Shown here piece by piece: positions 2,628 through 30,329 of a stretch of DNA of 41,027 nucleotides. The stretch covers positions 1,358-42,384 of the forward strand of contig DAEG01000062.1 in assembly GCA_002495235.1 (NCBI GenBank). The letters are read 5' to 3'. This DNA is from Euryarchaeota archaeon UBA287. GTDB lineage: Archaea; Thermoplasmatota; UBA186; UBA287. Position numbers and translations under genes: made by a program. The notes under the pieces were generated by a model. It saw only the letters and a program-made list of their open reading frames with translations, did not search any database and was not told where the DNA came from. Positions within the stretch are counted from its first letter, which is position 1. Each line of letters starts with the position of its first letter.

Positions 2628-3388
2628 GCCACACGGTTCCTGAGCGTCCCTATGCCCTCGATCCTCGCCTCCATGAGGTCTCCGTCCCTCAGGAACTCAG
2701 GAGGATCCCTGAAGGCCCCTACCCCGGCGGGAGTGCCGGTGGCTATGACGTCACCGGGCAGCAGCGTCATGGTCTGGGTTATGTGCTCGATGATAGACGG
2801 TATGTCAAATATCATCTCGCTGGTGTTAGCCCTCTGCTTAACCTCACCGTTCACTCTCATCTCTATCTCCAGGTCCATGGGATCCTCTACGTCATCCACG
2901 ATCCACGGGCCCATCGGGCAGAAGGTATCGCAGCTCTTCCCCCTGAACCACTGCCTGTCGCCGAACTGGAGGTCCCTGGCGCTCACGTCGTTCAGCACGG
3001 TGTATCCCAGAATGTACTCGTATGCGCTTCTCTCCGGGACGTTCCTCGCTCTTTTACCCATGACCAGGGCGAGCTCAGCTTCATAGTCAAGGTCCCTGAC
3101 GATGTCGGGTTTTATCACAGGATCCCCATCGCCCACCACAGAGCTCACGGCCTTTGAGAACAGTATGGGCCTCTCCGGCCTTTTCGTCCTGTTCTCCTCG
3201 ACATGGCTGCCGTAGTTGAGCCCGAGGCAGATTATCTTTGTCCCGAAAAATGGGGCTGATAGCTCACACCCATCAAAGGTCTTTCTCGTCTCCTCTGCAG
3301 ACAGAGGTCCCTCAGTCTCTATCACCGTTCCGCTCTTGAGTATGCCCCAGTGCTCATGGCCCTCCGCTACGAATCTCGCCAGTTTCAA
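2600..3388 (-). CDS. fumarylacetoacetate hydrolase (FAH) family protein
   Basis: LDYEAELALVMG, GYTVLNDVSARD, GKSCDTFCPMGPW and PGDVIATGTPAGVG motifs. The TTG at 3388 gives an MKLARF-type N-terminus and a TTGA overlap with the upstream stop. GTG 3415 is the alternative start. Confidence 0.8.
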   Translation of the reverse strand: MKLARFVAEGHEHWGILKSGTVIETEGPLSAEETRKTFDGCELSAPFFGTKIICLGLNYGSHVEENRTKRPERPILFSKAVSSVVGDGDPVIKPDIVRDLDYEAELALVMGKRARNVPERSAYEYILGYTVLNDVSARDLQFGDRQWFRGKSCDTFCPMGPWIVDDVEDPMDLEIEMRVNGEVKQRANTSEMIFDIPSIIEHITQTMTLLPGDVIATGTPAGVGAFRDPPEFLRDGDLMEARIEGIGTLRNRVAYASTQTSK

Positions 3389-5052
3389 GGTGCACCGCTC
3401 GTTCTCGCTATGCACTCGGCGAACTTGTAGTCCATCAGCGGCTGTGTTGATTCCTCTTCCTCATGGCTCTCACCACTCTCCAGGTAGGCTAGCGCGAGCA
3501 CGGGATTTATGCCAGAACTCTGAGCCCGGGCTATGGCGCTCCTCGCGTTCTCCCGAGCCACCGCTATGCTTTCACCATCCATGCCCCTGGCACCCAGCTC
3601 TATGACAAGCTCGGATAAGGCCAGTGCTTTTGAGGCGAGCACGACGGCTCCGGCGGTGTAGCTGTCATTCACGGCGCTCTTGGCCCTGACGAGCTCATCA
3701 TTGGCCTGAGCGAGCACGGATAGGAGCTCCGTCGGTGTGGAGAACTGAGCGTACATGAGGGTCTCTTCCGCCGCGTTCGTGGTTGAGAGGGCCAGCGACG
3801 TTACGTAATCCTCGCTAAACTCTTCACTCGCCTTTGTCGATTTTGCCATGTCGAACCACCACTCGGCGCTTTTTGCCCTCTCTGCGGCGTAGGAGAGGGT
3901 GAACATTCCGTCCGCCACGTTGCCGTTCTCTGTGAGGTTGTAGCCCATCTCGAAGTTCTCCTTTGCCTCTATGATCTTCTCCTCCGCGGCTCCGAAGCAC
4001 TGCAGATACGCCATGTTATAGTTCTTGGTCTCGTTCTTTATCCTGCTATCCACCCTCTCGATCTCATCCCCTATCTCTTTGAGGCCTCTCTGCGGGTCTG
4101 TGCGGTATTTCTCATAGTTTGACACATAGCTGGAGTATATTATCGATTCGAAGAATGAGGACGCGGCAGAATAATACTTCCCCCGGGACATGAAGTTCTG
4201 ACCGTTTACGATCCTGTTGCGCGACTCTTCAAGGTATCCCTCTGTCGATGAGCTGTTGGCCCTCTGAGCGCTGGCGTAGCCGCCCTTTGCCTCAGCCTCC
4301 AGCTCTCTTGCGTGCGTTTCCATGAGCTGTTGGTACTCTGAGTCGTCTATCGTCCCTGCGCTCTGTCGTTCTATCCTCTCGCCGGTGAACTCTCTCACCG
4401 CCTCTCTCACGTCAGAGATCTCCTTCACCACCACGCCCAGCTCCTTTCCGTAATCTATCAGGTTCATCTCCGCAGGTTTTTGACTTGTTATGACAATGGG
4501 GCCTATCTGTCTTGCGCTTGTTTCCATGTAGGAGTAGTTGGCCTGGCCCTTAGGCAGGAGAAAGACCTTTGCCCCCCCCTCCTTGGCAGCCTCCATCTTC
4601 TGAGGTATGCCGCTCACAGGCCCTATGCTGCCGTCAGGGCTTATGGTCCCGGTCATCATGACATCCTTTCTCAGCTTCAGACCATTCAGCGCGGAGACCA
4701 TGGCCACGGTCATGGCACCGCCAGCCGATGTACCGCCTATCATCTGTGCTTCTCCGCGCACGACCACGAAGAAATCGTAGCTGTTCAGGCTCTTGTTGGC
4801 CACCGAGCAGGCGACGCTCGCGGCCATGCGGGCGCTGCTCTGCATGTCTATCTCGGTCAGGGGAAAAGTGTCCACGAACACGTGCCCGCTTCCGGGCTCC
4901 ACTCTCACGCGCATGGTTGAGAGAGAACCCACCATTCCTTCATCTGTCTGGGCAACAGCCGGCGCATAGACCTCGGCCCATTCCTGATCCTTCAGGGCTA
5001 AAGCCGGCATAGCTAGCGCCAACACTATCAGCGCAACCATGATCTTTCTCAT
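3385..5052 (-). CDS. secreted S16 (Lon C-terminal proteolytic domain) peptidase with long helical C-terminal region
   Basis: GGTSAGGAMTVAMVSAL (catalytic Ser motif) and GTISPDGSIGPVSGIPQKMEAAKEGG (catalytic Lys region). Signal/TM segment MRKIMVALIVLALAMPALA and no AAA+ domain. The start is uncertain (5052, 5070 or 5163). A TATA-like gttataca about 26-35 nt upstream favours 5052. Confidence 0.7.
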   Translation of the reverse strand: MRKIMVALIVLALAMPALALKDQEWAEVYAPAVAQTDEGMVGSLSTMRVRVEPGSGHVFVDTFPLTEIDMQSSARMAASVACSVANKSLNSYDFFVVVRGEAQMIGGTSAGGAMTVAMVSALNGLKLRKDVMMTGTISPDGSIGPVSGIPQKMEAAKEGGAKVFLLPKGQANYSYMETSARQIGPIVITSQKPAEMNLIDYGKELGVVVKEISDVREAVREFTGERIERQSAGTIDDSEYQQLMETHARELEAEAKGGYASAQRANSSSTEGYLEESRNRIVNGQNFMSRGKYYSAASSFFESIIYSSYVSNYEKYRTDPQRGLKEIGDEIERVDSRIKNETKNYNMAYLQCFGAAEEKIIEAKENFEMGYNLTENGNVADGMFTLSYAAERAKSAEWWFDMAKSTKASEEFSEDYVTSLALSTTNAAEETLMYAQFSTPTELLSVLAQANDELVRAKSAVNDSYTAGAVVLASKALALSELVIELGARGMDGESIAVARENARSAIARAQSSGINPVLALAYLESGESHEEEESTQPLMDYKFAECIARTSGAP

Positions 5053-5197
5053 AGAGGTGATAAAGGACATCGGTGTATAACTTTTTTTCCAATGCTCTGG
5101 AATGTGTCTTCGGGCGGGAGCCTGACATAGCCGACGCAGGATGTGATCGCGGTATCCTGACAATGTTCATCACGCTGGTTATCATGTACAGAAAAGG

Positions 5198-20561: not shown

Positions 20562-20741
20562 TCGGATACGTCTGCTTTCCAGGCTCAGACCAACCATTAT
20601 TTGTTGTAACTTGTTTTGGCATGCACGAAGCGCTCTCACACGCAACTCAGATAGCCTGTTCAGGATCTGTCGTTTGCAGAGGTTTTTGTTGACCGAGATC
20701 GTGGCGCTGTCTTGTTTCTCTCTCTTAGTCCTTTTTTCGTT

Positions 20742-23700
20742 CTATTTCTGGAAGTTGCTTCGATTTATGCCAATCCCGTAAAGCGAATTAACCAAATCTT
20801 CTAAATGACATAAGCGTACAGAATATTCACTACATATCTCACTATCTTTATAATCCCTCAATTCTATAAGATTTAATACATCATCTGAGATTTGTTCGTA
20901 TAGTGACACATCGCAAGAGATCAAATTTTTTGGTACAGGAAGTTTTTCTAAAAATTTTGATCTATATCTCAGATATCCTCCGCCCATGTGCATCCCTGCA
21001 AATAATATTTCATATATTTTTGATAACAATTGTGAATTTAACAATCCTAATATCATTTCAATTTTTAAATCGATGTTATCTTTGATTACTGCAAAGTATA
21101 CGCCGCCCTGTGGAATCATTTTTTCGCAATCTAATGTTGCCTCTATCTCAAGAGCATCTTCTGATATTACTATCTTTCTTTTTAAAGAATTTTGATACCT
21201 TTCTGAACTTTGAGATGTAATCTTTCTTAAATTTTGAGCGCTTATGTACGTCCCTTTCTTTATTTTTGAATATTTTGAGAACTGGTATTGTTTAACAATA
21301 GGAAAGTCCCCCGATTCTTCTTCGTATTTTTCAGGAATTCTCAATCCCTCACTTATCTTTATTATTTCGCCAACATATACTGAATTTTTATAAAGGCCCA
21401 GTACAAAATCGATGTCTTTTTGATCCACATTAATTGGAATGACTCTATATGGTAACAAATTAAGTTGTTCTGTCGTTATCTGATATTTTTTATGCGATGT
21501 CCGTAGTCCTTTAAAACTTAATTCTTTTGCTTCCCTAACTGTAACTGGCATCATGTGCTTGTCTCTAGTAAAAATTGATATGACAGGATAATTTGCAGCG
21601 CTATCAAAAACGCCTAACCTGGAAGTACTTATTATTTCAACTTTTGAGGTGCTATCAAATAAAAAATTTCTGAGATCTATGGCGGAGTCTGCAGCACAAT
21701 ATTTGTTTGGCGTGATAAAAGTAAAATTGCCATTCTGCGCTGATATCTTTTTTGCCAATTCAAAAAACAGATAATACAGATCATATTTGCCTTGGCTTGA
21801 AATATAAATATTTTTATATATGCTTTTTTGATAGGGATCTATTTCATCAACTCTAACATATGGTGGATTCGCAATAACAACATCAAATCCAGGATTCTCT
21901 CTCTGAAAGACCTCGGCAAAGTAGAGTTTCCAGAGGAAGAATGGTTTTACATTGGTCTTTCTGTATTGTTCGAGTTTGGCCATGGCCTCTTCACGGCCCT
22001 GCTCTTTAAGCGTAGCTTCGATAAGCTCCCATTCTATCCGGTCTATCCTTTCCCTGAGCTTTTTCTTGTTGTTCCTGTTCTGCTCGTTGAAGAACCCTTT
22101 CTGGAGCTCTCTCAATTCCTTCAGTTTTATCTGGGATTCTCTGATCCTCTGCTCCAGTGCCTGCTCCAGTGCCTGATCCCTGCTTATCTGCGCTCCCTTG
22201 CCATTCTGCCTCTTCTCCAGCGCCGCCTTCCTCTTCTGCAGGTTCTCCAGCTCTTCAGCGTATTTCCTTATTTCGGGTCGCTGGTCACCGAATCTGGTCT
22301 CTGACAGGACCCTGTTGAGGCGTGATATCTGTTCTTTGACCCATTCGATCTCCAGCTCGGTCGGGCTTTTGGATGCTATTTCCCCAAGCAGTCTCTCATC
22401 GAATAGTCTGATACCCTCAAATTCTTCCAGAAGGCTGTTGCCGCACATTATCTTATGGTCAAGGTTAGGGAGTGGTTGTATGTTCTCTCTCTTTTCTTCA
22501 TCCACGATCAGTGATAACCAGAACCTGAGCTTGGCTATCTCTACGGCGGATGGATCGATATCCACGCCGTACAGACAGTTCTCAATGCACTGCCGTTTTA
22601 GATTGTACTCTGTTCTGGACTCCCGTTCTTCGGGGGAGAAGAAAAGTGTGAGGATAGAGCGGGCCTTGACGATCTCGTTCATCATACCTACCGGAAAAGC
22701 ACCTGAGCCGACAGCAGGGTCTACCACCTTGATGTCCTGCAAAAGTTTGTCTATTTTCCGGTAGTTGTCAGCGATCGATCCTGGAACAAGCGAGCTCTCA
22801 TCAACATAGCTTTTACCACTATAACGTTCCTTCTGCGCCATATATCTTATTGTCTGGTCCAAAGCTATGTCACCATACTGGACAAAACGCTCTATGTCCT
22901 CTCTTGATATGTTCTGGGTGTTTGTTTCAAGGTAGTTGATCAGACTCTGCTGACACATGTAATGAACGATCTCTCTGGGCGTATAGAAAGCGCCCCTGTC
23001 CTTGCGCTCCCTGACCTCTAGAAGATTTTCAAAGACTTTTCCGAGCATCTCAGGATCAATTGCAACCTCCTTTTCGAGCGGTTCATCCTCCTTGACTGTA
23101 AAATTGTATCTGTCGAATACGTCAAGTATCCCTGTCCCTGTATCTCCCGCGTTTGTTCTGACCGAGTTTGAAAAAAGTTCATTAGGTATAATTATATCAG
23201 TGTCAGTCCAGTTGTAGTCGTTCAGCGGTTCAAAAAGGCCACCATTTAGGAATGGTATCTTGCATCTGAAACGGCTGTAATAATCGTTGTCTGCGCTCCT
23301 GTCGGTGGATAGAGCTTCATAGAATAGCGGTTCCAGCACGTCGTTGAAGAAACTGTCGTAAGACGTGGTCTTCTTATCGAACAGTTTTCGCAGGAAATTT
23401 CTTGGTCCGGTCCCCCATTCATCGAACGTGCCATCGGATCTCTTCTGAACGCCGAGCCACCCCTTCTTTTGCAGGAAGTAGATGAACACAATCTGTCCCA
23501 TCAGCTTCTTTGAGAAATCTATGGCGGAAATGCCTTTGTTGCTGAACTCCGCCCCTATCCTCTGATCCTTTGCCAAGATCTCATCCACGGCTTCCTTGAG
23601 CTTGATCGTCAATTCCTTGTACTTCTCGAAGAACTCCTTTGTCACGTTCTCGACACTGAACGCCTGTTCAATCTGGCTGATTAAGGGATTTGTCTTCTCT

Positions 23701-24215
23701 TCAATCACAAGATCAAGAAACTGCTTCTGGCAGGTGTGATTGGGTTCGTTTACTCCTACAAGGAATGAATAACGTTTTGCGGGTGTCAGTTCCTTTGTGG
23801 GCATCGCTATTCCATTCTCGTTTTTGACCAGGTCATATTCCATCTTTACGTATGAAAGACGCCAGTCTTCATCATCGTCGCCATAGAACGCTACAAGCGC
23901 CGCGTCTACGCCATAGTTAGATAGCCACGAGGCGATGAAGTTTCTCTGCATGGTTCTGGCTCTGTCCCGTGATGACGTTCTTTTGAGCTTTACAGCAAGT
24001 ATCTCCATACTCTTTTTTGATGTGTCTCTGTACCCTGCGATCTTTTTACAGTCGGATATGTACTCTCTGAACTGGCTTGCGACAAATTGGGTTTTATCCT
24101 GAATGTTGATCTGGATCTCATTGAACAACTCCTTGATGAATCTGGAAAATTGGTCAATGTCAAAATTTTTTTTGAATGTGTCATCCAGCAGTTTGACGGC
24201 TTGTATCCTATTCAT
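20742..24215 (-). CDS. large gamma-class N6-adenine DNA methyltransferase (MmeI/PglX/Eco57I-like) with TaqI-like C-terminal specificity domain
   Basis: IPFLNGGLFE, GAFYTPREIV (motif X), VVDPAVGSGAFP (motif I), YGVDIDPSAVEIAKLRFWL, NLDHKIMCGNSLL, a charged coiled-coil insertion of about 150 aa, then FDVVIANPPYV (motif IV, nt 21858-21869). The C-terminal domain of about 370 aa ends with GGGYLRYRSKFLEKLPVP. ATG 24215 lies inside the last codons of the upstream gene (aacAATGAATAG). Confidence 0.85.
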   Translation of the reverse strand: MNRIQAVKLLDDTFKKNFDIDQFSRFIKELFNEIQINIQDKTQFVASQFREYISDCKKIAGYRDTSKKSMEILAVKLKRTSSRDRARTMQRNFIASWLSNYGVDAALVAFYGDDDEDWRLSYVKMEYDLVKNENGIAMPTKELTPAKRYSFLVGVNEPNHTCQKQFLDLVIEEKTNPLISQIEQAFSVENVTKEFFEKYKELTIKLKEAVDEILAKDQRIGAEFSNKGISAIDFSKKLMGQIVFIYFLQKKGWLGVQKRSDGTFDEWGTGPRNFLRKLFDKKTTSYDSFFNDVLEPLFYEALSTDRSADNDYYSRFRCKIPFLNGGLFEPLNDYNWTDTDIIIPNELFSNSVRTNAGDTGTGILDVFDRYNFTVKEDEPLEKEVAIDPEMLGKVFENLLEVRERKDRGAFYTPREIVHYMCQQSLINYLETNTQNISREDIERFVQYGDIALDQTIRYMAQKERYSGKSYVDESSLVPGSIADNYRKIDKLLQDIKVVDPAVGSGAFPVGMMNEIVKARSILTLFFSPEERESRTEYNLKRQCIENCLYGVDIDPSAVEIAKLRFWLSLIVDEEKRENIQPLPNLDHKIMCGNSLLEEFEGIRLFDERLLGEIASKSPTELEIEWVKEQISRLNRVLSETRFGDQRPEIRKYAEELENLQKRKAALEKRQNGKGAQISRDQALEQALEQRIRESQIKLKELRELQKGFFNEQNRNNKKKLRERIDRIEWELIEATLKEQGREEAMAKLEQYRKTNVKPFFLWKLYFAEVFQRENPGFDVVIANPPYVRVDEIDPYQKSIYKNIYISSQGKYDLYYLFFELAKKISAQNGNFTFITPNKYCAADSAIDLRNFLFDSTSKVEIISTSRLGVFDSAANYPVISIFTRDKHMMPVTVREAKELSFKGLRTSHKKYQITTEQLNLLPYRVIPINVDQKDIDFVLGLYKNSVYVGEIIKISEGLRIPEKYEEESGDFPIVKQYQFSKYSKIKKGTYISAQNLRKITSQSSERYQNSLKRKIVISEDALEIEATLDCEKMIPQGGVYFAVIKDNIDLKIEMILGLLNSQLLSKIYEILFAGMHMGGGYLRYRSKFLEKLPVPKNLISCDVSLYEQISDDVLNLIELRDYKDSEICSEYSVRLCHLEDLVNSLYGIGINRSNFQK

Positions 24216-27200
24216 TGTTCTCACTACTCACAAGGTATTCTGAGAGCACAACCTCCCGTACTCCAGAAGTATTGGTTGAAGTGTCCGAATGAACTTTTCT
24301 GAACCGATCCGGCGATATCCCGGCTCTGATTTTTGCAACTATCTTTAATGGATCAATATCATTTTCGATACTTTTTTCCACCTCGGTCACCCTGGGCTTC
24401 TGCAATCCGCCATCTCTTATCAGGTCAAGAACTGCCTGAAGATAATCTTCATCATCGTCGGTTAGCTCTGGTTTGTGGATTATGGCCTTTATTCTCTTGA
24501 TCAATTTTGACTCATGACTCGTTCCTGTTGGGATTCTGGCGGATTCCTCCGCGCTCATCACGACCCCATCAAAAGCTTTTTTATTACGCTCCAGATGCTT
24601 ATAAAAATCTGGTTTTAACTCTCTTCGCTCTGTGTTTTTTTGCGCCTCGAGGATCTTGGAGGCCGTGGAAAAATCCACTTCTTTAACATTTTCGCCCTCG
24701 GTCTGGAAGATTTTTCTGAACTTATCCTGTCTGAAAAATGTGATCACGGAATCTTGTTCGGAGTCATAGCCCCTTGCGGTTCTTGCCTTCTTTGGGAGGC
24801 GCTTTATTCTTTCATACAGCTCCTTGTTGTTGTCCCGGAGATCTCTCAAAAAAGTTAGGTACCCCAATTCAGGATTCTCCTCTTCGTTCTCTCCGGTAAT
24901 CTGCTCTTTTGAGGTCAATTTTTTGAACAGATCATGTGATTTGATTTCTTCGTCTGTGAGTAAAACTGCATCATTTCCCAGCATCTCGATGAATGCCTTT
25001 ATCTTTGATTCCGCCGCTTCCTCCAGGCCAATGTTTTCGTTTATTGGTCCGGCAGGGAAAAAGTTGTACGTGTATATCTGGCCGAATGGTGGGTTCTTAC
25101 TGACTCTGTTGACCCTGCCGACTCTCTGCATCATCCGGACCGGATTCCATGGGATATCGTAGTTTATAACAACATTGGATCTGTGGAGGTTTACGCCTTC
25201 TGATAATATGTCTGTAGATATCAGTATCCGAACATCATCCTCTTGTTTTTGAGGGCTGAGATTCGCATCAAAATTCTGCAGGATCTTTTTTCTCATGCCT
25301 TCGGGAGACTGGCTGTGAAAAGCAAGGACAGAGCCTTTGAAATATCTATTGAGTTTGGATTCTAGATAGGTTGCAGTATCTTTTGATTCTGTAAAGACTA
25401 TCAACTTGTGCTTTTTCAGGGTTTCATCTGATTTTAATATCTCAATAAATCTGTCGAGCTTAGGGTCCTGATCAATATGACTCCACATCTCCCCAATTTT
25501 TTTCAGGAGGTTTAAATCGTGCTCCAGATCTTTAATGAGATCGGGAGTGAAATCCTCCGCAGGATATATCGAGACTTTGTCTTCATCAATCAATCTTTGT
25601 ATGGTGTCTTCATCATCTCTCTCCCGCAACTCAAAGATTTTTTTAATATTCTTGCTCGTACACACGTAGCCCTTGTTGTATTGCGCGATAAATCCAGATG
25701 TTGAATCGATAAAACGGCCTATTGTTTTTTTGAATGCACAGAAACTGCTTTCGAGACGTTTCAGTAGCAGTATCTTCATTAAACGGCCCATGTTCCTCTG
25801 GTGTGTCTGCTGATTCTCAGGCAGTTCCTCTTTCAGATATAACAGCGGCGTGTATCTTGCATACCTGAAATCATTTATGATAAGTTCCAGCGTGGTGTTG
25901 AAGGTTTTATCCAGGTCTTCATCAAAATGGTAGACCACAGGCTCAGGATCCCTGATCTCCGGGAATTTTAATTTGTTTCTATTCAGATCCTCTTGGTAGT
26001 ATTTTATGATGTTACTTCTTGTTCTGCGAACCATCAGATATTGTAAAACGTTCTCCCGAATGTCCTTTGCGTTCTCCTGAACGACCCGGATATACTCATC
26101 TTTATCGGTTTGTCTGCTCAGATTTTTCAGTCTGGTCTGGAGGGTGTTGAAATATCTTTCAATATCGCGAACTTTAGGATTTGGTAATGTTGATCTGTGT
26201 GCGAGCTGAAAAAGCTTGATCTGGCTGAGGATATCGAGTGGTGTATTGTTCAGGGGCGTGGCGGATACGAGAATGACACGCTTGCCACTGCAGATACTAA
26301 AAAGCTCATCGTACATCTGGGTGGTTTCGGTTCTGAATCGGTGAGATTCGTCAATAAATACGTTTGTATATCCATCGACGCCCTGTTCTACCAGCTTATC
26401 CAGCTTACCTATCGACTCAAATTTTGACTGCCTCACCCCAAAATCCCTGAAAACGTTGGGCCAGGAACCCGGGTTATCTTCATCGATGAGAGCAGGTGGA
26501 GCGATAACAAGGTTTCTACCATCCAGCTGCTTGGCCAGCATTGCGGCGATATAGGTTTTTCCAAGACCCACCACATCCGAAAGAAATACACCATGGTATT
26601 CTTCCAGCTTTGATTTTGCATCTATTACGGCGTCTTTTTGATATTCCAGCTCCATGAAGTTATCCGGGTGATAATCGAAATCCAGCTCTTCTTGATCCAG
26701 ATCTATTTTTTCTTTCAGATACTCATAAAGGAATTTTAAATAGAGCTCGTAGGGAGTGATTTCATTGTTTATCCACGTGTGCTTTTGAACGGTTTCAATA
26801 TATTTTTCTGAAACGTCAATAGCCTTTTCCCACAGCTCATTGAATTTTACCTCAGAGAACTCGTAATCTGCATAGTTTTTAAGTTCAACATTGAATTCGA
26901 GGTTGTTTCTAAGTCCGGATTCGGTGAAGTTGCTTGAGCCCGTTATTACTCGGCCCACATCCCTGTCGCCTTCTTTAAATCTCATTATGTACAATTTTGC
27001 GTGCATATTTCCTTCCGGATAGGCTCGAATTTCCAATTTCTTGTTTTTAAGCCACTCTATGAACTTCAGCACTCCTTCTTCCACATCCTCAGAATCATTT
27101 GATTCATCCATCTCGGATATGACTTTTTTGTCGAAGTCATCTTTTAACTCTTTTGCAGATAGTAGTTCTTGTTGGCCATAGCGCGACTCTTCAATCATCC

Positions 27201-27405
27201 GATATGTTTTTTGATCTGTGTTTATTCCTATGAGAATTCTTATCTTTTCTGTGTTCTCCAAGGATTTATAGATCGCCTTGAAACCTGAGGAGCGAAAGTA
27301 TCCTACAAGGCAATCGAAGAAACGAGTGTCTTTGATGAGTTCGGAGAAGCGCTGCTGAAGATTATGACCCTCCTCGTTTGTGATAAATGTAAGATCCTCT
27401 GTCAT
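24208..27405 (-). CDS. PLD-family (HKD) nuclease domain fused to SNF2/SF2 helicase, with uncharacterised C-terminal region
   Basis: N-terminal domain with FDCLVGYFRSSGF, KIRILIG, NMHAKLYIM (H-x-K) and ITGSSNFTESGL (GSxN). Helicase motifs are DVVGLGKTY (I), FIDESHRF (II), LVSATPLNN (III), STDILSEGVNLH (V) and NPVRMMQRVGRVNRV (VI). ATG 27405 is preceded by ggagag. TTG 27438 is the alternative start. Confidence 0.85.
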   Translation of the reverse strand: MTEDLTFITNEEGHNLQQRFSELIKDTRFFDCLVGYFRSSGFKAIYKSLENTEKIRILIGINTDQKTYRMIEESRYGQQELLSAKELKDDFDKKVISEMDESNDSEDVEEGVLKFIEWLKNKKLEIRAYPEGNMHAKLYIMRFKEGDRDVGRVITGSSNFTESGLRNNLEFNVELKNYADYEFSEVKFNELWEKAIDVSEKYIETVQKHTWINNEITPYELYLKFLYEYLKEKIDLDQEELDFDYHPDNFMELEYQKDAVIDAKSKLEEYHGVFLSDVVGLGKTYIAAMLAKQLDGRNLVIAPPALIDEDNPGSWPNVFRDFGVRQSKFESIGKLDKLVEQGVDGYTNVFIDESHRFRTETTQMYDELFSICSGKRVILVSATPLNNTPLDILSQIKLFQLAHRSTLPNPKVRDIERYFNTLQTRLKNLSRQTDKDEYIRVVQENAKDIRENVLQYLMVRRTRSNIIKYYQEDLNRNKLKFPEIRDPEPVVYHFDEDLDKTFNTTLELIINDFRYARYTPLLYLKEELPENQQTHQRNMGRLMKILLLKRLESSFCAFKKTIGRFIDSTSGFIAQYNKGYVCTSKNIKKIFELRERDDEDTIQRLIDEDKVSIYPAEDFTPDLIKDLEHDLNLLKKIGEMWSHIDQDPKLDRFIEILKSDETLKKHKLIVFTESKDTATYLESKLNRYFKGSVLAFHSQSPEGMRKKILQNFDANLSPQKQEDDVRILISTDILSEGVNLHRSNVVINYDIPWNPVRMMQRVGRVNRVSKNPPFGQIYTYNFFPAGPINENIGLEEAAESKIKAFIEMLGNDAVLLTDEEIKSHDLFKKLTSKEQITGENEEENPELGYLTFLRDLRDNNKELYERIKRLPKKARTARGYDSEQDSVITFFRQDKFRKIFQTEGENVKEVDFSTASKILEAQKNTERRELKPDFYKHLERNKKAFDGVVMSAEESARIPTGTSHESKLIKRIKAIIHKPELTDDDEDYLQAVLDLIRDGGLQKPRVTEVEKSIENDIDPLKIVAKIRAGISPDRFRKVHSDTSTNTSGVREVVLSEYLVSSENNE

Positions 27406-27706
27406 GCGTTTCTCTCCTGGCGCTGGTCTTTTGTGCAAGCTCTTTTTACGGCGTCTTTAGACCTCTTTTCTGTACCTCTCACTCTCATCATGCGGAACCT
27501 CGTTTGTAGATAGGCAGACTTATTTTTAAATCTTTTTGCATCCCACTGCATTGGCTAGAAACAATCCTGTTAGAACGCTTATAATATAAGCCACGACGGT
27601 GTAAACTTTTGATGATCCTCCTTGTGGGGATCGTTCCCATACAAAAGCGATTGGTTGCGGCTCTTCAAACGGCTAACCTTTTATATTGAGACCGGAATGA
27701 GCGTAT

Positions 27707-29768: not shown

Positions 29769-30329
29769 TCAGAACCTGAATTTCTTCAGTCCTTTTCTAA
29801 TTTCCTTATATCTGGGGCAGAGTTCCTCCACTGTCTGCCAGAATAGCTTTGAATGACTGAAATGTATGAGGTGCGCCAGCTCGTGAACCACGAGATATTC
29901 CCGCATCTCTCCGGGGAGACAGGCGATGCGGAAGTTGAATGAGAGCACACCCTTTGCGGAGCAGCTTCCCCAGTACCTCGTGTCAACGATCCTGATCCCC
30001 TTCGGCCTGACGTTCATGAGGTCGGATAGCCGTTTCACGGCATTGTCGAGATATTTTCCGCTCTCTCTGCGCAGAACGCTCTCGCCGTCCCTGCCGCTGA
30101 TCCACTGGCCATCAAAGTAGAACCCGTTCGCCGTGAGTAGCTGTGTCTTATCCGCGCTTTTTCTGTAGATTCTCTCTACGTCCCTGGGGTCAACAAGGTA
30201 GAGCCAGTGCTCGTCAGGCAGGACTATCTCGACTACGTCGCCCTTCATTCGCAGGTATATGTACTTCCTGCTTCTCCCCTTTTTGACCTCGTATTCTACG
30301 GTATTTCCATCTATGTCTATGAATGGCAT
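29769..30329 (-). CDS. YgjP-like (DUF45/M48-related) zinc metallohydrolase
   Basis: YWGSCS and VVHELAHLIHFSHSKLFW (HExxH) motifs. It abuts the MATE start codon directly. Confidence 0.75.
   Translation of the reverse strand: MPFIDIDGNTVEYEVKKGRSRKYIYLRMKGDVVEIVLPDEHWLYLVDPRDVERIYRKSADKTQLLTANGFYFDGQWISGRDGESVLRRESGKYLDNAVKRLSDLMNVRPKGIRIVDTRYWGSCSAKGVLSFNFRIACLPGEMREYLVVHELAHLIHFSHSKLFWQTVEELCPRYKEIRKGLKKFRF

Follow-up and report, generated by a model that had tools for sequence, protein, structure and literature searches.

What can two very large genes, lying by themselves in a low-GC block of an archaeal chromosome, accomplish together when one encodes a nuclease fused to a motor and the other an adenine methylase? 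This question is raised by a 41,027-nt stretch of contig DAEG01000062.1 from Euryarchaeota archaeon UBA287, called the window below. The two genes are adjacent on the minus strand. The upstream one encodes P1, a phospholipase D (PLD)-type nuclease joined to a Swi2/Snf2 motor, and the downstream one encodes P2, a gamma-class N6-adenine methyltransferase (MTase) with its own target-recognition domain (TRD). We propose that the pair is a self-contained, horizontally mobile, ATP-dependent restriction-modification (RM) system, and we give this reading a probability of about 0.7. The broader statement that it represents a functional, mobile defense module of the RM type is almost certainly correct, judging from the sequences of the genes and their relatives. 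An earlier annotation of this DNA, made from its letters alone, is referred to below as the sequence-only reading.

Domain architecture of P1 and P2

The sequence-only reading described an AT-rich block with two giant minus-strand genes inside GC-rich archaeal housekeeping DNA. The composition and the open reading frames (ORFs) agree with this description. GC content is 0.421 over positions 20646 to 27706, whereas the left and right flanks reach 0.552 and 0.526, and the block contains two intact minus-strand ORFs (24208..27438 and 20742..24224). The flanks consist of archaeal housekeeping genes, among which an archaeal flap endonuclease (fen_arch) and an archaeal RqcH (RqcH_arch) exceed their NCBIfam cut-offs. 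The features of the pair are as follows.

24208..27405, minus strand: P1 gene, 1065 residues, comprising HKD/PLD nuclease, Swi2/Snf2 motor and C-terminal region (ORF, translation, Pfam)
26830..27318, minus strand: single PLD (HKD) nuclease domain of P1, residues 30-192 (PLDc_2, 3e-12)
26983-27009 and 26923-26940, minus strand: HxK motif and GSSNFT of the P1 PLD domain
25102..26649, minus strand: Swi2/Snf2-type superfamily 2 (SF2) ATPase core of P1, residues 253-768 (SNF2-rel_dom, ResIII, Helicase_C)
26554-26568, 26341-26352 and 25102-25128, minus strand: Walker A, DESH and motif VI of the P1 SF2 core
24211..24873, minus strand: P1 C-terminal region, residues 845-1065, a four-stranded beta sheet and a helical bundle (AlphaFold2 [AF2] model)
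20742..24215, minus strand: P2 gene, 1157 residues, comprising N-domain, MmeI-like helical linker, gamma-class N6-adenine MTase and TaqI-like TRD
23511..24215, minus strand: P2 N-domain, residues 1-235, alpha/beta, family-specific (alignment, AF2)
22776..23510, minus strand: helical linker of P2, residues 236-480, with NGGLF (23232-23246) and FYTP (22977-22988) (weak MmeI_hel match, 0.015)
21516..22775, minus strand: gamma-class N6-methyladenine (m6A) MTase of P2, residues 481-900, with motif I (22695-22721) and NPPY (21858-21869) (Eco57I, 5e-35)
20745..21515, minus strand: TRD of P2, residues 901-1157, with a TaqI_C match at residues 982-1094 (7e-8)

The maximal P1 ORF extends to a TTG at 27438. 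Translation almost certainly begins with the ATG at 27405 (MTEDLTF...) and not with this TTG, because 60 full-length homologues begin there, at MxxDLTF. The proposed fusion of a PLD nuclease to a complete SNF2-type SF2 core was borne out by Pfam (PLDc_2, SNF2/ResIII and Helicase_C) and by every motif quoted for it. SNF2-rel_dom and ResIII span residues 253 to 466 and Helicase_C spans residues 649 to 768. The motifs are located at residues 133 to 141 (NMHAKLYIM), 156 to 161 (GSSNFT), 280 to 284 (GLGKT), 352 to 355 (DESH), 381 to 387 (SATPLNN) and 760 to 768 (QRVGRVNRV), and just one HxK is present in all of P1. In an alignment of 60 P1 homologues, with a mean column identity of 73%, the nuclease-domain residues H135, K137 and N159 are invariant. 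The same is true of the Walker A sequence GxGKT, of D352, E353 and H355, and of Q760, R761, G763, R764 and R767. The C-terminal region is conserved among homologues and was modeled with a pLDDT score (predicted value in the local distance difference test) of about 85 to 90 over residues 845 to 950. Pfam gave no match over residues 780 to 1065, with no DUF3427, SRA or EVE domain and no nuclease. The best Foldseek matches of the P1 model included RapA, Chd1, CSB, Rad54, SauUSI and ZorD (E values of 7e-12 to 5e-9), as well as SMARCAD1 and Mot1; SauUSI (7clg, about 1040 columns) and ZorD align along the whole model. The top PADLOC model for P1 was C3a139, “HKD+Snf2” (2.8e-43).

P2 had been interpreted as a gamma-class m6A methylase carrying its own TaqI-like TRD, and the Pfam matches (Eco57I/MmeI_Mtase and TaqI_C) and motifs support both parts. 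NGGLF is found at residues 324 to 328, FYTP at 410 to 413, DPAVGSGAF at 499 to 507, CGNSLL at 591 to 596 and NPPY at 783 to 786; neither motif I nor NPPY varies among 42 P2 homologues. The Eco57I match covers 325 residues on a 171-position profile. In a PDB profile search, the methylase-TRD half of P2 was closest to CamA, BseCI, PglX/BrxX (BREX) and TaqI. The linker is the best-conserved segment of P2, with a median identity of 66% among 119 homologues. Between CGNSLL and NPPY lies an E/R/K/L-rich insert of about 150 residues (residues 606 to 760; 21936-22400), probably a coiled-coil, which varies in homologues and at which tblastn alignments break. Although the sequence-only reading recognized the MTase, its MmeI/PglX-like gamma class and the TRD, it overlooked the 235-residue N-domain and missed the REBASE-derived “Type IIG” label of this methylase family.

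The N-domain has a confidently predicted fold (AF2 pLDDT of 84.8). Its invariant residues in the alignment, R87, Q90, R91, W118, R119, R148 and E157, are mostly basic or polar. It had no Pfam match and no PDB profile match at E<=10, and a phmmer search of P2 against PDB gave no convincing nuclease. Foldseek returned TM-scores below 0.3 against PDB, which holds PglX, BrxX and MmeI structures, and of at most 0.31 against BFVD. The domain is present in 2167 cluster representatives (50% identity), 512 of them at E<=1e-30. Among the 150 best listed, it is located at or near the N terminus, mostly in proteins of 1000 to 1300 residues.

Pairing, mobility and specificity turnover

A genome scan starting from P1, with one genome per species, yielded 20 close loci with downstream DNA. 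A P2 homologue directly follows P1 on the same strand in all of them. Conversely, when the P2 N-domain was the starting point, P1 was directly upstream of P2 in 73 of 80 metagenome loci; in the other seven, the available DNA ends less than 1.4 kb upstream, so that the score is 73 of the 73 loci that can be judged. The complete pair is also present, with P2 directly after P1, in 10 of 10 IMG/VR contigs classified as viral (L117-L126), with 50 to 60% identity to P1. Thus, the module may travel on viruses or proviruses of archaea or of candidate phyla radiation (CPR) bacteria. The same pair, as separate genes, lies among unrelated neighbors in a genome of Methanobacterium and in one bin each of Peregrinibacteria and Lokiarchaeota. 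Co-occurrence of the two genes in other genomes, on which the sequence-only reading made its interpretation depend, held without exception in more than 100 loci. Across 70 distinct pairs, P1 identity to the window protein correlates with P2-core identity (r = 0.90), a sign that P1 and P2 are inherited as one module.

No third universal gene emerged from all-against-all ORF clustering of 25 loci. The candidates considered for this role, namely genes for AlbA_2/HATPase_c_4/wHTH proteins, genes for a helix-turn-helix (HTH)-M78 protein plus a DUF4411 protein, and small ribbon-helix-helix (RHH) or HTH ORFs, were rejected as occasional riders. The family ranges over Thermoplasmata, methanogens, Asgard and DPANN archaea, CPR bacteria, Bacteroidota and contigs classified as viral. 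Methanogenium marinum DSM 15558 (L020) and the Methanobacterium sp. of L002 are among its cultured carriers. GenBank phages contain no close relative, the best match having 27% identity. The pair is found in defense-island and mobile contexts, with Gabija-like and Kiwa genes as its neighbors in other genomes. To judge from these relatives, it belongs to a very widespread, strictly paired and unnamed family. Databases divide this family, filing the methylase under “Type IIG” and leaving the helicase unassigned. In this archaeal genome, the pair was acquired horizontally.

While P1 is strongly conserved, the TRD of P2 is hypervariable. Of the 119 P2 homologues, 113 to 119 can be aligned in the N-domain, linker and methylase (median identities of 53 to 66%), but only 30 in the TRD, at 35% identity. 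The low GC content of the island is uneven, being 0.33 in the last 1.2 kb of P2 and 0.47 in the rest of that gene. In P2 itself, GC content is 0.326 over 20742-21950, the 3′ part from NPPY onward including the TRD, versus 0.466 over 21951-24215. The step coincides with the part that fails to align with most homologues. Such a sharp step inside the gene suggests that the specificity module was exchanged by recombination, and looks like a contribution from a donor of lower GC content. Bacterial relatives have TRD shufflons, in contrast with the window. In Prevotella nigrescens and on the Lactococcus plasmid pJM1F (L008), inverted partial methylase/TRD genes accompany an Mpi invertase, implying phase-variable specificity. 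The P. nigrescens locus (L116; NZ_CP082843.1, 379667-391493) encodes a PLD plus SNF2 protein and, after it, an Eco57I MTase in which the N-domain is detected (6e-17); the Prevotella methylases carry this domain at 1e-24 and 6e-17. Programmed inversions have been reported in such loci (Milman 2023, PMC9881135). An AAA_14/DUF4143 ATPase gene lies within the Prevotella shufflon.

The junction and the region upstream of P1 contain the following features.

24208-24215, minus strand: 8-nt overlap ATGAATAG of the P2 start and the P1 stop (P2 ATG at 24215-24213, P1 TAG at 24210-24208)
27402..27530, minus strand: upstream control region (read from the sequence)

The 8-nt stop/start overlap was as the sequence-only reading had given it. 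In most loci of the family the P1-P2 junction measures -4 to +18 nt, and the median is about 10 nt. The overlap fits translational coupling, but the further claim that the genes are almost certainly co-translated went too far, since relatives carry an extra gene between P1 and P2. Insertion of a 1.4-kb gene at this place implies that coupling is not essential. By Pfam, the inserted gene encodes a Schlafen AlbA_2, HATPase_c_4 and winged HTH (wHTH) protein in L014 (4919-6334) and L024 (10201-11607), and a gene of this type is directly upstream of the pair in L003 (6862-8229). Proteins of this type are common passengers of Type I RM operons. Gaps of 1.2 to 1.4 kb between P1 and P2 were also observed in L023, L036, L041, L043, L044 and L079.

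Upstream of P1, a TATA-like TTTAAAAATA at 27521-27530 is located about 30 nt 5′ of a basic ORF of 29 codons (27402-27491; MMRVRGTEKRSKDAVKRACTKDQRQERNA), whose TGA overlaps the P1 ATG (ATGA). This ORF is not conserved in the closest relatives and may thus be spurious. In about 12 of 75 loci, an RHH-like ORF of about 47 residues ends 4 to 11 nt into P1. Its consensus is MSSKNVTLRVNE.LYD.YR.FCK..GW..SRQFE.MME, and it is found at 3813-3956 in L005 and also in L012, L013, L015, L023, L029, L039, L043 and L052. In other loci, this spot is occupied by ORFs of the MerR/excisionase type or by HTH_3 ORFs. By their sequence and position, these small ORFs at the P1 start resemble genes for the controller proteins of RM systems, which delay nuclease expression.

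Several neighbors recur without being general. Genes for an HTH_3-peptidase M78 protein and a DUF4411 protein directly follow the methylase gene in L005 (10864-12503), L015, L024 and L029, and may form a rider that is regulatory or resembles a toxin-antitoxin pair. In Methanobacterium, the methylase gene is followed by a DUF365 gene (L001/L002, 16718-17125), as is the helicase gene on a Thermococcus plasmid (L009, 11326-11784); this recurrence may be a coincidence or denote an archaeal accessory gene. Distant PLD-helicase relatives with 25 to 29% identity occur on Thermus oshimai pTHEOS02 (L007) and on the Thermococcus profundus plasmid (L009). There, an MTase gene and a hypothetical gene precede the helicase gene, directly in Thermus and with three intervening genes in Thermococcus. 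The Thermus MTase has 744 residues and no TaqI_C match; the hypothetical protein, of 412 or 601 residues, has no Pfam match and might be a separate specificity subunit. We set these plasmid loci aside, as a separate though related architecture, and did not use them as evidence on the pair. Among such distant relatives, separate searches also located both genes on one Nostoc plasmid, about 2.6 kb apart.

Regarding the surroundings of the island in the window, further flanking genes encode Taw2, a CBS protein, MatE, LplA (lipoate ligase), pyruvate kinase and histidine ammonia-lyase. A tRNA scan of the window found none, and a search for direct or inverted repeats on either side of the island gave nothing convincing. 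A gene for a YgjP-like/WLM metallopeptidase, a family often linked to Type I RM loci, is located at 29769-30329, three genes away from the island and beyond the CAAX-protease and MatE genes. A protein identical to P2 (P0121) is present in a Joint Genome Institute metagenome. The corresponding 97.5-kb contig (L114, Ga0394088_088205) encodes a methylase 100% identical to P2 and shares the left-flank genes. It begins within P1, and the assembly may have broken at the island.

Known systems and alternative readings

The pair does not map cleanly to a named class, as the sequence-only reading had surmised: PADLOC, NCBIfam and the searchable literature contain no named two-gene system of this kind. 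Passing mentions aside, the searchable full-text literature has no published name, definition or test of the pair, REBASE being outside this search. The partners that define DISARM and BREX had been noted as absent, and we indeed found no DrmA, DrmB, PglZ, BrxC or DUF499 protein in the 20 flanking ORFs. DrmA/DrmB, PglZ, BrxC, DUF499 and DUF3780 are missing from the whole window, and none of them is conserved as a neighbor in 25 related loci. The sole BREX-type match in the flanks, to BrxL, is weak and involves the Lon domain of a Lon-like protein (3385-5163).

Type III RM had been put forward as the closest comparator. This does not stand, because Type ISP enzymes share the N-to-C order of modules, and SauUSI and the MANTIS protein MtsD both consist of an N-terminal PLD and an SF2 motor; Type ISP, SauUSI and MANTIS fit better. 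For the same reasons, the N-terminal nuclease and the res-then-mod order are no anomalies. By analogy, we propose a two-subunit logic like that of Type III, in which the methylase would find the site and load the helicase-nuclease, together with one-strand methylation of an asymmetric site and an inverted-site rule. The components differ, however. Type III Mod is a beta-class enzyme with an internal TRD, whereas P2 is of the gamma class (FYTP, DPAVGSGAF, NPPY) with a C-terminal TaqI_C TRD. The nuclease of Res is C-terminal and of the PD-(D/E)xK type, whereas that of P1 is N-terminal PLDc_2, and the mod-res gene order of Type III is not found here.

Type ISP enzymes (LlaGI, LlaBIII) unite a nuclease, an SF2 double-stranded DNA translocase, a gamma-class m6A MTase and a single TRD in one chain. 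They recognize asymmetric sites, methylate one strand, and perform long-range cleavage driven by ATP (as cited in PMC7913695, PMC2790908 and bioRxiv 10.64898/2026.09.23.753747). The same module order, nuclease, SF2 motor, gamma-MTase and TRD, holds across P1 and then P2. In contrast with the single ISP polypeptide, the modules are distributed here over two overlapping ORFs, which are also separate in the relatives examined. The nuclease is HKD/PLD instead of Mrr-type PD-(D/E)xK, the motor of P1 is closest to Swi2/Snf2 and RapA, and the 235-residue N-domain of P2 stands at the place of the ISP “coupler.”

We consider MANTIS (Gao_RL, Gao_29, Type-2 BREX-related, MtsABCD) to be the closest known comparator. 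Its MtsD is an HKD plus Swi2/Snf2 dimer with one shared PLD active site, and its guide is an N6-adenine MTase whose methylation falls on one strand of an asymmetric 6-bp site. MANTIS was shown experimentally to restrict unmethylated DNA, with inverted sites favored (bioRxiv 10.64898/2026.09.23.753747). MtsD and P1 share the fusion of an N-terminal HKD nuclease to a Swi2/Snf2 helicase, and some MANTIS operons encode an Arc/CopG repressor, as the RHH-like ORF of relatives of the pair recalls. The differences are that the window and related loci lack both the DUF499 ATPase (MtsA) and the DUF3780/DUF3870 protein (MtsB), that P1 scores 140 bits against the phospholipase-D anti-phage protein model NF042964, whose cut-off is 1100, and is thus not an equivalog, and that P2 has its own N-domain and a TaqI-like TRD. 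The pair is best seen as a stripped-down relative of known ATP-driven systems: an analogue of Type ISP that is split in two and armed with a PLD nuclease, or else a MANTIS relative reduced to a minimum.

The alternative that survives best, though we regard it as unlikely, is that P2 acts autonomously as a Type IIG enzyme, with a divergent endonuclease for an N-domain, and that P1 is an accessory, for instance a processive degrader of cut DNA. It draws on the best PADLOC match of P2, the REBASE-derived model REase_MTase_IIG (PDLC03596), which covers P2 end to end (1.1e-204), profile positions 1 to 402 included, on the REBASE assignment of Prevotella Pin17FIII to Type IIG (PMC5608340), and on the conservation of D117, K124 and E157 of P2. 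A few very weak BFVD matches of the N-domain are labelled PD-(D/E)XK or Cas4 (TM-scores of 0.18 to 0.23). However, REBASE-derived “Type IIG” labels are largely assigned by similarity, and Pfam, PDB profile and Foldseek searches all detected no nuclease domain in residues 1 to 480 of P2, MmeI_N and Eco57I-type nuclease domains included for Pfam. The searches of the N-domain itself (Pfam at E<=10, PDB profiles and Foldseek) were unconvincing, and we did not count the BFVD labels as evidence for a nuclease. A PD-(D/E)xK arrangement could not be derived either from its predicted strands and conserved residues, whose order gives no D...(D/E)xK. Lastly, Type IIG enzymes stand alone, whereas P2 was never found without P1 where this could be judged (73 of 73, 20 of 20 and 10 of 10 loci); an autonomous enzyme would not need P1.

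Enzymes of this label are also where the family has already been noticed in passing, without being named or characterized. The C3a139 “HKD+Snf2” family is listed among type III CRISPR neighbors with no function assigned (Shah 2018), and Table 3 of Milman 2023 (PMC9881135) lists such loci and treats the methylase as a stand-alone Type IIG enzyme. In Prevotella intermedia 17F, Pin17FIII, which REBASE assigns to Type IIG, has an upstream SNF2/RAD54 helicase (Johnston 2017, PMC5608340). Pin17FIII, a probable relative, methylates the asymmetric sequence GGYGAB when produced on its own in E. coli (PMC5608340), whereas the MANTIS methylase needs helpers. These “Type IIG” loci with an upstream SNF2 helicase (Pin17FIII, Milman Table 3, C3a139) probably have the same architecture. 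The reports mention the helicase merely in passing, whereas we treat the pair as a unit. The pair is less surprising than the sequence-only reading had it, but it is a tractable minimal system with a conserved N-domain.

Less probable again is that the pair is a detached fragment of class 1 DISARM (DrmD+DrmMI) or of Type-2 BREX-related/MANTIS systems (MtsC+MtsD), dependent on partners or nonfunctional alone. Class 1 DISARM does have a homologous SNF2 helicase, an Eco57I-family m6A MTase and a PLD nuclease. P1 matches DrmD (1e-36 to 9e-38; 1.2e-36 in PADLOC), BrxHII and NF042964, and P2 matches DrmMI (2e-36; 2.1e-36 in PADLOC) and PglX. Moreover, MANTIS methylation requires MtsA and MtsB (bioRxiv 10.64898/2026.09.23.753747). 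The scores are nevertheless far under the curated cut-offs, with 130 versus 610 bits for DISARM_DrmD, 140 versus 1100 for NF042964 and 76 versus 500 for BREX_1_MTaseX (PglX), and the DrmMI match is far weaker than that of the Type IIG model. DISARM has a separate DrmC, whereas the PLD domain is fused to the helicase in P1. DrmA and DrmB (DUF1998) are missing from the 20 flanking ORFs and not conserved in the 25 loci. The BREX proteins PglZ and BrxC are missing as well, and the 41-kb window holds no DUF499, DUF1998 or PglZ protein. The 25 compared loci conserve no third gene, more than 100 loci in many phyla keep the pair alone with intact motifs, and P2 has its own TRD and a family-specific N-domain that is not in PglX structures. 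Methylation by Pin17FIII without partners (PMC5608340) also speaks against this reading.

Very improbable, finally, is that P1 is a SauUSI-like, modification-dependent (Type IV) nuclease while P2 marks invading DNA (the Pgl model) or acts as an epigenetic regulator: the PLD plus SF2 architecture, the Foldseek alignment with 7clg and the phase-variable TRDs of relatives, known also from phasevarion regulators, would suit it, but SauUSI, a dimer sharing one PLD site, cuts modified DNA with its own reader (DUF3427) and no partner methylase, whereas P1 has no detectable modified-base reader in residues 780 to 1065 and always adjoins a methylase, a nuclease cutting the product of the methylase fixed beside it would be self-toxic, the host chromosome carries the pair, and strict operonic pairing with controller-like ORFs upstream of P1 fits classical RM.

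Proposed mechanism and significance

The RM system that we propose would operate as follows. P2 would provide specificity and protection. It would read a short asymmetric sequence with its single TaqI-like TRD, and with its gamma-class domain it would methylate one adenine at N6, on one strand of host DNA. P1 would be the effector, a Swi2/Snf2 double-stranded DNA translocase with one HKD half-site. Because there is a single half-site in P1, two P1 PLD domains would have to join to form one active site. At an unmethylated, foreign site, P2 would recruit or license P1, which would move along the DNA at the expense of ATP and cut at a distance from the site. Cleavage would most likely require two inverted sites, and this requirement would spare the host chromosome just after replication, while it is transiently unmethylated. 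Type ISP, Type III, SauUSI and MANTIS serve as the model for several of these steps: how P2 would target P1, methylation of one strand, dimerization of PLD domains, long-range communication driven by ATP, and dependence on site orientation. As a working hypothesis, the P2 N-domain, the P1 C-terminal region, or both might form the P1-P2 interface. Relatives without the N-domain, for example in Lactococcus, are also paired with PLD-SNF2 proteins.

Several points speak against a self-contained RM system. The two-protein system may work unlike MANTIS, in which loading of the methylase needs MtsA, a DUF499 AAA+ ATPase, as well as MtsB, and for which attempts to reconstitute restriction in vitro did not succeed (bioRxiv 10.64898/2026.09.23.753747). 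The AF2 model of P1 is of moderate confidence (pLDDT of 72.6). In addition to the weak nuclease labels of the N-domain matches cited above, P2 might cut alone if the REBASE “Type IIG” entries are truly bifunctional.

We also considered a bolder interpretation, which as a whole is possible but doubtful. The pair would represent a distinct, self-sufficient class of ATP-dependent RM systems, in which the N-domain of P2 couples site recognition to the PLD-Swi2/Snf2 motor without the AAA+ loaders of BREX and MANTIS. It would at the same time be the minimal, possibly ancestral core of DrmD+DrmMI of class 1 DISARM and of MtsC+MtsD of MANTIS, and be especially common in small-genome archaea (DPANN), CPR bacteria and their viruses.

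If two proteins suffice for restriction, the system would be among the simplest motor-driven, methylation-based defenses known. Two questions could then be addressed cleanly: how an unmethylated site passes from a methylase to a Swi2/Snf2 motor, and how a nuclease with a single HKD assembles on foreign DNA alone. In MANTIS and BREX, extra ATPases obscure both. Current tools see a “Type IIG” methylase alone and leave the helicase-nuclease without a system. Recognizing the pair would correct the annotation of probably thousands of loci, and would add a type of defense that seems particularly relevant to archaea.

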